Positions 25,487 to 26,538 of a DNA stretch of 64,000 bases are shown piece by piece. Under the pieces are notes generated by a model, which saw only the letters and a program-made list of their open reading frames with translations, did not search any database and had not been told where the DNA came from. The stretch's first letter is position 1; each line of letters starts with the position of its first letter. The position numbers and the translations under genes were made by a program. The stretch comes from Dehalococcoidia bacterium (GTDB taxonomy: Bacteria; Chloroflexota; Dehalococcoidia; Bin125), in assembly GCA_965220315.1 (NCBI GenBank), contig CBDCPP010000001.1, positions 972,806 through 1,036,805 on the forward strand. Direction: 5' to 3'.

Positions 25487-25535
25487 CTCCCCCATCTGGA
25501 GCAGCCGGGCCCTCCCCTCGTCCGTGGTCGCTGGT

Positions 25536-25928
25536 TTAGTCCTCCACCAGCGCGCAGGTAAGGTCGTCGATGCGCCAGCGCTCCAGCATGGTCATGGCCT
25601 CGGGCGCTGGCTGGGCTGGCTTTCGCCCCTGGCGGATCGCCTCCGCACAGCGATCGGCGTCGGCGTCGAGGCAGGGGGCCGTCCAGGGATGCCAGTGGTC
25701 GCCCATCGCCTCGCCCTTGGGGAGGGCAGTCAGGACGCCCCCGTCATCGCCCTCGAGGTGCCGCCCGCAGTGGGTGCAGCGCACGCTGAGGATGCTCATT
25801 TCGCCGGTGCTCCTGTCGCGCCAGCCCACGTAGATGAAGTAGCAATCGGCGTCGCGGGAAAGGCCAGTGCGGGCGATCCGCCAGAGGATCGCCCCGTTCC
25901 TGACCGTGGCTATGCGGTAGTCCGTCAC
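25536..25928 (-). CDS. hypothetical protein (zinc-ribbon-like C..HC...H.H), ORFan of element B
   Basis: GTG start at 25928. 130 aa. No recognisable family. Confidence 0.35.
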   Translation of the reverse strand: MTDYRIATVRNGAILWRIARTGLSRDADCYFIYVGWRDRSTGEMSILSVRCTHCGRHLEGDDGGVLTALPKGEAMGDHWHPWTAPCLDADADRCAEAIRQGRKPAQPAPEAMTMLERWRIDDLTCALVED

Positions 25929-25931
25929 TGG

Positions 25932-26102
25932 TTACTGCTCCCCCTCGAGGGCGGCGGGCCTGATCGCTGTGTCGATCTGGTAGCGCGCCGCGTCGAGCGT
26001 GCGGTGTGGGTTGGCCTCGACGAACAGCCGCCCGGCGGCTCCTCGACCGTGCTCAGCGTAGAGCTTCCGGAGCGCCTGGCGCTCGGCGTCCGTCCAGCGT
26101 GA
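25932..26102 (-). pseudogene. C-terminal fragment paralogous to the 22277..22702 protein
   Basis: Minus-strand translation SRWTDAERQALRKLYAEHGRGAAGRLFVEANPHRTLDAARYQIDTAIRPAALEGEQ*. This aligns with SRWTDAEREELQGLYYEHGRREGARLFVEAHPHRTLEGARYQID of the element-A gene. An in-frame stop lies upstream and there is no start codon. Confidence 0.6.
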
Positions 26103-26261
26103 GCCTCAAAACTGTCCCTGGCTCCTAGCTGCGGCCCGCGCCAGCCAGCCGGATAGGCAGAAGAGTCCTCAAACTTTACGTAAGATAACTAAATTGGGAA
26201 CTTCAGGCTATCCGAAGCGGGAACCGGCGCTACCTGGACAGCCCGACGGGGGGAGTTGATT

Positions 26262-26306
26262 CTCTTATTCAGGCGGTTGTAGGTTCGAGTCCTACGCGGC
26301 GCACCA
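26262..26306 (+). repeat. third copy of the tRNA-Lys 3' half (attR of element B; 4 mismatches in 45)
   Basis: CTCTTATTCAGGCGGTTGTAGGTTCGAGTCCTACGCGGCGCACCA. Followed by CCACGCTTCGAG, the same 12 nt that follow the CCA end of tRNA-Leu. Confidence 0.7.
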
Positions 26307-26403
26307 CCACGCTTCGAGGCGGTGTGAGCCACTGCCGCTGGCGGCGCGCCGCGGGATCGCCGTCAGGGGCCGAAAAGCTGTGGAAAGTCGATCCGCGCGG
26401 CAT

Positions 26404-26488
26404 GGGGAAGTGTCGGAACTGGTAGACGAGCACGATTTAGGATCGTGTGCCGCAAGGCGTAGGAGTTCGAGTCTCCTCTTCCCCACCA
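26404..26488 (+). tRNA. tRNA-Leu (anticodon TAG), type II with long variable arm
   Basis: GGGGAAGTGTCGGAACTGGTAGACGAGCACGATTTAGGATCGTGTGCCGCAAGGCGTAGGAGTTCGAGTCTCCTCTTCCCCACCA. Anticodon loop TTTAGGA, encoded CCA. Confidence 0.9.
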
Positions 26489-26538
26489 CCACGCTTCGAG
26501 ACGAGCGCCAGCCGGGGCGCGCCAGCGCTTGAGGGGGT

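Follow-up and report, generated by a model that had tools for sequence, protein, structure and literature searches.

A tRNA cluster with three copies of the tRNA-Lys 3′ part

Within a 64-kb stretch of DNA from an uncultured member of the Dehalococcoidia (Chloroflexota), hereafter called the window and used as the coordinate system unless another locus is named, we analyzed a cluster of three tRNA genes and the segments between them, in particular the interval that separates the second of three copies of a tRNA-Lys 3′ part from the gene for tRNA-Leu. ARAGORN placed tRNA-Val(GAC) at 17799-17875 on the minus strand, a functional tRNA-Lys(CTT) at 18063..18138 on the plus strand (67 bits for the Rfam tRNA model) and tRNA-Leu(TAG) at 26404..26488, also on the plus strand and likewise recovered by Rfam. 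A scan of the region from 17.5 to 27 kb with Rfam returned no RNA besides these three tRNAs, and no promoter-like or terminator-like sites were seen between 25300 and 26700. The EamA transporter gene that adjoins the array described below is 78 to 91% identical to genes of a set of Dehalococcoidia/Chloroflexota metagenome-assembled genomes.

The final 45 nucleotides of tRNA-Lys(CTT) (18094-18138) are present three times in direct orientation, with starts at 18094, 25442 and 26262. The first copy (18094-18140, plus strand) is the 3′ part of the tRNA gene itself, while the second (rep2; 25442..25488, plus strand) and the third (rep3; 26262..26306, plus strand), whose starts are 820 nucleotides apart, are each identical to it at 42 of 45 positions. 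When up to three mismatches were allowed, a search of the window found exactly these three sites, and a match was obtained in none of 100 dinucleotide shuffles. A preliminary description of this DNA had located rep3 correctly but had credited it with four mismatches, where we count three; the similarity is not confined to the T-arm, a possibility raised in that description, but extends from the anticodon loop to the CCA end.

Relatives carrying comparable elements were found via the protein encoded at 22277-22702, and the locus was scanned in one representative per species. Three relatives share long stretches with the window: L089, a near-identical strain (99.9% identity across window positions 25320-32617); L084, about 92% identical to the window; and L005, 85% identical across 26259-27445. 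Rep2 with its downstream flank is kept in both L089 and L084. A degenerate fourth copy of tRNA-Lys in the 97-nucleotide spacer between rep3 and tRNA-Leu, a candidate suggested by two further relatives (L002 and L008) in which the Lys half abuts tRNA-Leu, was not supported when local alignments were compared with those of shuffled sequences.

An apparently intact relative at the same site

In L087 (European Nucleotide Archive accession ERZ25073972, a 733-kb contig), an apparently intact element of 10 kb occupies the same tRNA-Val(-)/tRNA-Lys(+)...tRNA-Leu(+) site and is flanked by a perfect 47-nucleotide direct repeat (L087 2504-2550, identical to 12576-12622). Since its two boundaries fall on the same bases as those of the three copies in the window, the first of which matches it exactly, we consider this repeat to represent the attachment (att) core of a family of tyrosine-integrase elements. 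Of the copies in the window, the first would then be the attL site of an element A (18139-25441), rep2 would be both the attR site of A and the attL site of a remnant B, and rep3 would be the distal attR site of the array.

The gene order of the L087 element begins with an uninterrupted 375-aa tyrosine integrase (88% identical to that of the window), small open reading frames (ORFs), and DUF5679 and HTH_31 proteins, and continues with a 530-aa RepB_primase_C protein, the N-terminus of which resembles replicative primases of phages and haloarchaeal plasmids, followed by the hallmark protein discussed below, a ThsB-like TIR protein and a 320-aa ORF. Neither the precomputed Pfam hits of this element (integrase, DUF5679, HTH_31, RepB_primase_C and ThsB_TIR) nor the element in the window includes a relaxase, a coupling protein or a type IV secretion component, and neither a capsid gene nor a known excisionase gene was recognized in the intact L087 element. 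Since relaxase, type IV secretion and capsid genes are missing from L087, the family cannot be assigned to the integrative and conjugative elements (ICEs), the integrative and mobilizable elements or the prophages, and "integrative, prim-pol-encoding element" is the label as far as the evidence reaches.

Both arms of the L087 element contain a double motif, TGCCACTC-N-CGTGCCACTYC, which in the window is found only at 18219-18238 and 25319-25338, that is, in the two arms of element A; two matches were reached in none of 100 shuffles. Judged from the sequences, its occurrence in both arms would fit the pattern expected of integrase arm-type sites. During integration, the integrase would recombine the 47-nucleotide attP core with the end of the tRNA-Lys gene, starting in the anticodon loop and finishing two bases beyond the CCA, which would rebuild tRNA-Lys and leave a copy of the core at the far end. 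Intact members of the family would be around 10 kb in size and would comprise a tRNA-adjacent tyrosine integrase, small regulators, a replication protein of the prim-pol type, the hallmark protein and a slot for variable cargo. The occupants of the site differ among the window, L087, L008, L002 and L005.

In an independent assembly, a whole contig of 9919 nucleotides (L088; ERZ28763718) is a 100%-identical copy of L087 2639-12557 and ends just inside the att core on both sides. These ends could reflect assembly breaks at the repeat or a mixture of integrated and excised forms.

Element A and its lesions

The integrase-proximal (P′) arm of element A carries the arm-type-like double motif TGCCACTCGCGTGCCACTCC (18219..18238, plus strand), retrieved by the window-wide motif search and present in L087 as well. 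The integrase gene itself (18279..19381, plus strand; Pfam Phage_integrase, 1.7e-26; PHROG integrase, 4.6e-61) begins 140 nucleotides downstream of tRNA-Lys and is a pseudogene: in comparison with L087, L084 and L002, a frameshifting deletion of 25 nucleotides between 18532 and 18533 has split it into two ORFs, the C-terminal part being 88% identical to the intact L087 integrase. The regulator and primase module of L087 is absent from A, and in its stead we found a 112-aa ORF (19508..19846, plus strand), which is 65% identical to an integrase-adjacent ORF in L002 and has no family match in Pfam, PHROG or PADLOC, and a DEAD-box helicase (20006..21466, minus strand; Pfam DEAD, 2e-49; Helicase_C, 1.4e-30). 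The position of the 112-aa ORF and the helicase is conserved in L002, L084 and L089, with the helicase showing 89% amino acid identity in L002 and 98% in L084.

At the other end of the element, the P arm (25300..25441, plus strand), with its arm-type-like motif at 25319-25338, aligns to the P arm of L087 with a score of 108, which was reached by none of 1,000 shuffles. It is, however, some 50 nucleotides shorter than the arms of intact relatives, and the gap covers the ACTTTACGTAAAAT segment seen in the arms of L087, L002 and L008. With its integrase gene disrupted, element A is defective.

Between the hallmark gene and the P arm lies a slot for variable cargo (22815..25319), delimited by comparison with L089 and L087. 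In the window, it holds a 157-aa ORF (22901-23374, minus strand) and a secreted ankyrin-repeat protein (23503-25242, plus strand; Pfam Ank, 3.6e-41), whereas the corresponding slot in L089 (L089 10536-13122) contains an AAA_15 ATPase, with NsnB as its best PADLOC match and also AriA/GajA-like, and a 139-aa ORF, and that of L087 encodes the ThsB-like TIR protein. Although the window and L089 are 95 to 99.9% identical on either side, their cargo is different, and the slot would seem to behave like a cargo or defense hotspot. The ankyrin gene contains two near-perfect internal tandem duplications, one of 174 nucleotides (two copies, 95% identical) near the N-terminus (23611-23973) and one of 216 nucleotides (two copies, 94% identical) in the ankyrin region (24275-24706).

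The intact 141-aa gene at 22277..22702 (plus strand) encodes what we consider the hallmark protein of the family, located near the attR end in the intact L087 element. An indexed search returned 19 homologues, and an exhaustive profile search yielded 45 clusters among 1.84 billion proteins. Its N-terminus is rich in cysteines, while the conserved part consists of the C-terminal 70 residues or so, for which AlphaFold predicts three helices (predicted local distance difference test score, pLDDT, of approximately 90 for residues 90-137). The best Foldseek matches in the PDB were c-Myb repeats and SANT domains (1guu, TM score of 0.79; 1h88_C, root mean square deviation of 1.8 Å over 48 columns) with nonsignificant E values of 0.6 to 0.8, and no Pfam family, Myb and SANT included, was matched even at E ≤ 10. 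On the basis of the model, the protein is therefore best described as Myb/SANT-like by resemblance and not by membership; a DNA-binding regulator or a recombination directionality factor would be our guesses at its role. Additional, partial hallmark copies are common in these islands, with one in A (22806-22833) and two copies each in L002 and L008. The segment in A, 28 nucleotides long (GAGACCGCCCGGTTGTTCGTCGAGGCCC), lies 199 nucleotides downstream of the original and is also complementary to 26013-26035 in remnant B.

Interval B between rep2 and rep3

Interval B (25487-26261) comprises the 775 bp between rep2 and rep3 and holds an intact ORF, a pseudogene of the hallmark protein and a stretch of 107 nucleotides directly before rep3. 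The pseudogene (25932..26154, minus strand) is inverted relative to the copy in A. At the DNA level, 22541-22675 and 25971-26105 are 77% complementary over 135 nucleotides, and 33 of 45 residues (73%) are identical at the protein level, with an E value of 6e-23. The opposite-strand paralogue of the 22277..22702 protein that had been reported in the preliminary description is therefore real and closer than the 60% or so proposed there, and any doubt about the significance of the similarity can be set aside. Its reported upstream stop, a TGA at 26100-26102, was found as well. Beyond it, the homology reaches upstream to approximately 26154 in another frame, where a TAG replaces the glutamine codon of the conserved RLAGAGRSQE (the pseudogene reads RLAGAGRS*EPGT). 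With a frameshift and two stops, this copy must be regarded as a pseudogene; over 55 residues, it is identical in L084.

The pseudogene is located directly upstream of, and on the same strand as, ORF130 (25536..25928, minus strand), an intact, lineage-restricted gene of 130 codons without a match in Pfam, PHROG or PADLOC. Two clusters of full-length homologues were found among 5.8 billion proteins, at 97% (L084) and 78% (L081/L082) identity; although an ORF is indeed present, its initial classification as an ORFan did not hold. In the comparison with the L081 homologue, which involves no indels, the ratio of nonsynonymous to synonymous substitution rates (dN/dS) is 0.31 at a dS of 0.44, by which ORF130 has the signature of a real gene under purifying selection. 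Its AlphaFold model was unreliable (pLDDT of 45) and too poor for a structure search. In L081 (also in L082 and L083), an unrelated locus of another member of the Dehalococcoidia near tRNA-Glu and tRNA-Gln, two hallmark fragments in direct orientation (L081 9923-9983 and 10428-10477, both from the C-terminal region) flank the ORF130 homologue, and L086 contains a full hallmark gene at a locus syntenic with that of L081. This suggests that the L081-type locus may be a second hotspot for modules of hallmark gene and ORF130.

The stretch before rep3 (26155..26261, plus strand) was recognized by motif search as a probable degenerate att arm. It contains a 14-mer, ACTTTACGTAAGAT (26173-26186), that is unique in the 64 kb, is located 75 nucleotides upstream of rep3 and was matched in none of the shuffles; the same motif is present in the P arms of L087, L002 and L008. 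On the basis of the two att-core boundaries, the hallmark pseudogene and this family arm motif, we interpret B as the remnant of a second, related element. In its present form, it resembles a cis-mobilizable element (CIME): it is flanked by direct cores of the attL and attR types (rep2 and rep3), and its 775 bp contain no integrase or transfer genes, ORF130 and the pseudogene being without family match. As far as the usability of these att sites can be read from their sequence, each core carries three substitutions, and the arms of B lack the double motif.

A tandem array of related elements and its alternatives

The most convincing explanation is that the region contains two related integrative elements, both decayed, arranged in tandem at tRNA-Lys(CTT), and that the interval between rep2 and tRNA-Leu is the distal end of this array; we put the probability of this reading at roughly 78%. 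Successive integration of related elements into one attB site, followed by decay, had already been proposed in the preliminary description, and it has become the best reading now that an intact element is seen at the same site in L087, the paralogue falls into the hallmark family and the ACTTTACGTAAGAT arm motif precedes rep3. Two integrations would produce the order tRNA-Lys, element A, rep2, element B, rep3, spacer and tRNA-Leu. Element A would have lost integrase function through the 25-nucleotide deletion, and it lacks the replication module of its intact relative, whereas B would have shrunk to 775 bp, leaving ORF130 under selection, the hallmark pseudogene and a trace of the att arm. The repeats and their extent, the homologies, the decay lesions and the conservation of the array in two relatives are there to be read; that an integrase catalyzed the integration events is what we infer. 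With no working integrase left and arm-type sites absent from B, the array has probably become immobile.

Several observations sit less comfortably with this explanation. The hallmark pseudogene of B runs against the orientation that the gene has in A and L087, and, apart from the 14-nucleotide motif, the stretch before rep3 is not collinear with the P arm. A candidate remnant of a P′ arm following rep2 had to be discarded, as its similarity was nonsignificant, and, as a further weak point of the reading, the GCCACTC double motif of the arms does not occur in B. Moreover, B is missing from L002, L008 and L005 and could be older or younger than A; an empty attB site (tRNA-Lys followed by the spacer and tRNA-Leu) was not found among the scanned genomes; and two DNA patterns gave 0 hits each in JGI metagenomes, as did the att core in IMG/VR.

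Some of these features would be expected if B had arisen locally, as an inverted duplicate of A's right end with its hallmark gene, arm and att core, through replication template switching or unequal recombination, and had diverged later: the hallmark copy in B is inverted relative to that in A, the arm of B is not collinear with the P arm, the sequence after rep2 has no significant similarity to a P′ arm, and partial hallmark copies are common, also counting the two fragments in L081. Nevertheless, we consider this scenario unlikely. The hallmark DNA of A and B is 23% diverged, about as much as copies in different species, and the copy in B is closer to those of L089 (83%) and L087 (79%) than to that of its own neighbor A (77%). 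Furthermore, ORF130 has no counterpart in A, the arm of B retains a ACTTTACGTAA motif that is absent from the arm of A, and rep3 would not have kept its direct orientation in a simple inverted duplication. Distinctly improbable, in our view, is the idea that B was never a full element but a miniature, nonautonomous, att-flanked cassette of the hallmark gene and ORF130, similar to a CIME, that was inserted in trans into the attR site of A by a related integrase. CIMEs and their cis-mobilization are documented (PMC5704250), B is confined to the clade of the window, L089 and L084, and in L005, L002 and L008 the distal junction is adjoined by an A-type arm, as would fit an arrival of B after A; the module of hallmark fragment and ORF130 also recurs at the unrelated L081/L082 locus. 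However, neither a second copy of B nor a circular form was found, B was not seen at any other att site, arm-type sites are lacking in B, the L081 module is not flanked by tRNA-Lys cores, and B may equally well have been lost elsewhere, through recombination between rep2 and rep3 in L005 and by deletion in L002 and L008. Finally, rep3 is tRNA-derived sequence within a tRNA cluster and could as such be taken for a decayed duplicate of the tRNA-Lys gene, a tRNA pseudogene and not a copy of an attachment site. This we regard as barely credible, given that the similarity sets in at the base where rep2 and the perfect repeat of L087 begin, that nothing resembling a tRNA 5′ half lies upstream and that neither ARAGORN nor Rfam calls a tRNA at rep3.

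Returning to the tandem array, its layout from rep2 through B, rep3 and the spacer to tRNA-Leu is kept in L089 (99.9%) and L084 (approximately 92%), and substitutions are shared between the genomes at position 30 of rep2 and at core positions 7 and 12 of rep3 (the latter two with L084), showing that the array is older than those splits. In L005, a single core copy with an A-type arm is joined to the same trailer, spacer and tRNA-Leu, without B. In L002 and L008, an A-type arm with a degenerate core is fused straight to the tRNA-Leu leader, apparently because the DNA from ...TCC(T)ACGCGG in the core to ...TCCGCGCGG in the leader has been deleted. Either B would have come first and A would have integrated later into the tRNA gene, or A would have come first and B would have integrated later into the attR site of A. 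The hybrid composition of rep2 and rep3 is the same whichever element came first, so the order cannot be read from the repeats. The confinement of B to the clade of the window, L089 and L084 mildly favors A first, with B later entering the attR site of A, but the other lineages may just as well have lost B secondarily.

A trailer shared by rep3 and tRNA-Leu

Rep3 is separated from tRNA-Leu by a trailer and spacer of 97 nucleotides (26307..26403, plus strand), which is conserved in L084, L089 and L005 (85%) and opens with the 12-mer CCACGCTTCGAG. An exact second copy of this 12-mer follows directly upon the CCA of tRNA-Leu (26489..26500, plus strand); these are its only two occurrences in the 64 kb, each directly behind a tRNA CCA end. 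The identity noted in the preliminary description was confirmed: a 17-mer, CACCACCACGCTTCGAG, which takes in the CCA end, is identical at 26302-26318 and 26484-26500, and 19 of 20 nucleotides match between 26302-26321 and 26484-26503. A longer segmental duplication of the trailers was considered and rejected: past the 12-mer, the similarity is nonsignificant, its score being reached by 294 of 1,000 shuffles.

Behind the Lys-type core, the trailer reads CCACGCTTCGAG-GCGG in the window, L089 and L084, CCACGCTTGGAG-AGG in L005 and CCACGCGTACCG-GCGG in L087, where the sequence following attR opens with the same CCACGC. These similarities across all five genomes identify the Lys trailer as a continuous, conserved feature of the distal junction. 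Behind tRNA-Leu, on the other hand, we found CCACGCTTCGAG-ACG in the window and L089, TCACGCTTCAGG-ACG in L084, CC---CTTCCAGG-CG in L005 and unrelated sequences in L087 (CCCCTCCTCTCT), L002 (GCCAACAGTCCA) and L008 (GCCCACAGTCCA). The resemblance of the Leu trailer to the Lys trailer thus predates this strain, occurs in a single clade and is subject to drift. Between the window and L084, 3 of 12 nucleotides differ in the Leu trailer, compared with 4 of the 227 preceding nucleotides (Fisher's exact test, P = 0.003). With L005 as the outgroup, the GA of the window (versus AG) is derived, and it is this GA that makes the two trailer copies identical, which hints at a short conversion event that may have rehomogenized the trailer in this strain.

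In every comparison, the base right after the tRNA-Leu CCA also marks a breakpoint in synteny. Homology to L087 is lost at 26490 and picks up again at 31117 (lepA), and that to L002 and L008 breaks off at this same position after the CCA. The suggestion that the tRNA-Leu trailer had been involved in a past recombination or duplication therefore gains circumstantial support, the 12-mer starting where synteny with three genomes is broken. Most likely, the Leu trailer is a copy of 12 to 15 nucleotides of the Lys trailer, made at a rearrangement junction and primed by the shared CACCA. A point against this is that its first 10 nucleotides also resemble the start of the P′ arm of L087 (CCACGCTCCG), so that the trailer may possibly be derived from an element instead. 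The identical register behind two CCA ends, together with weaker versions behind both positions in L084 and L005, could alternatively reflect a functional 3′-trailer signal for tRNA processing or termination, maintained by selection and no relic of duplication. We consider such a signal unlikely and give it slightly less credence than the miniature cassette discussed above: tRNA-Val of the window has a different trailer, the tRNA-Leu trailers of L087, L002 and L008 are unrelated, the Leu copy of the window has diverged from that of L084 more quickly than the sequence around it, no terminator-like structure was found, and one of the copies follows a dead tRNA fragment. A combined scenario, in which B is a miniature cassette moved in trans by a related integrase between att sites and other loci and the 12 nucleotides are filler from microhomology-primed templated repair at a deletion junction, would be just as improbable as the cassette on its own. 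To our knowledge, such "filler DNA" signatures have seldom been documented in bacteria.

Surroundings of the tRNA cluster

Compared with the order ThrRS-tRNA-Val-tRNA-Lys...tRNA-Leu-LepA in L087, the window contains some 5.7 kb of additional DNA to the left of tRNA-Val (12039-17798) and some 4.6 kb directly after tRNA-Leu (26491-31116; EamA, a 267-aa ORF and SulP). Both edges of the tRNA cluster are, by these alignments, rearrangement boundaries. An island inserted at tRNA-Leu and spanning 26491-31116, the block missing in L087, was considered and rejected, as neither a repeat of the tRNA-Leu 3′ end nor an integrase was found. The 267-aa ORF (27556-28359, plus strand), which has no Pfam match, is present in the window and L089 and missing between EamA and SulP in L002 and L008; a 44%-identical homologue is located elsewhere, in L009. 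L002 and L008 contain an extra VOC-family (glyoxalase-like) gene between tRNA-Leu and EamA (approximately 10975-11415 in L008), which is absent from the window, L089, L084 and L005 and has its left boundary at the base after the tRNA-Leu CCA. In L084, homology to the window stops approximately 50 nucleotides inside the 3′ end of EamA (equivalent to position 26592 or so), and past this break lies a different integrative element (L084 1-9340), with a P4-type integrase containing Arm-DNA-bind_3 and genes for AlpA, Rep_trans, an N6/N4 methyltransferase, a ResIII/RE_endonuc nuclease and a HEPN_AbiV protein.

Relation to known systems and implications

Tandem accretion and decay at tRNA genes is textbook behavior of genomic islands, and tyrosine integrases of P4-like and pSAM2-like phages and integrative plasmids target the 3′ halves of tRNA genes. 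The elements described here share with those systems an integrase adjoining the rebuilt tRNA gene, sequence identity from the anticodon loop to the CCA and arm motifs on both sides, but differ from them in that no capsid, transfer or known excisionase gene was recognized in the intact relative. A review is devoted to tandem accretion and CIMEs; Pavlovic et al. (2004) are cited in it. It describes accretion with decayed CIME partners, including cases at tRNA-Lys, and its examples are the ICESt1/ICESt3-related islands of Streptococcus thermophilus and a composite island at tRNA-Lys of Streptococcus agalactiae (PMC5704250). As in such arrays, the 3′ end of the target gene, here likewise tRNA-Lys, is the source of three att copies in direct orientation, the members are related, and one of them is reduced to a short, att-flanked remnant without recombination genes. 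Unlike in those arrays, conjugation or mobilization genes were not seen in any relative, the intact relatives carry a replication protein of the prim-pol type, the host is an uncultured member of the Dehalococcoidia, and B, whose att sites we know as sequence, has no arm-type sites.

Closer to the host, tandem genomic islands specific for ssrA occur in Dehalococcoides mccartyi (PMC3146451). Their host is of the same class, the Dehalococcoidia, and they likewise form multiple islands in tandem whose boundaries are directly repeated 3′ ends of a small RNA gene; some of these islands are without integration genes and possibly fixed. However, they rely on a serine recombinase (DsiB), a 20-bp repeat and the tmRNA gene and carry reductive dehalogenase cargo (PMC3146451), whereas the elements in this study combine a tyrosine integrase, a 47-nucleotide core and tRNA-Lys(CTT) with ankyrin or defense-like cargo.

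In summary, no new mechanism is revealed, and the kind of structure is already well known; of note are the definition of the element family and the small trailer copy. For annotation, rep2 and rep3 should be treated as att scars and not as tRNA genes, 25932-26154 as a pseudogene and ORF130 as a real gene. The att core, arms and gene order are now defined for an undescribed family of prim-pol-encoding elements that integrate at tRNA-Lys(CTT) in uncultured Dehalococcoidia. The cargo slot of this family alternates between ankyrin-repeat and defense-like genes even in near-identical strains, and the findings also help in tracing gene flow in these organisms.

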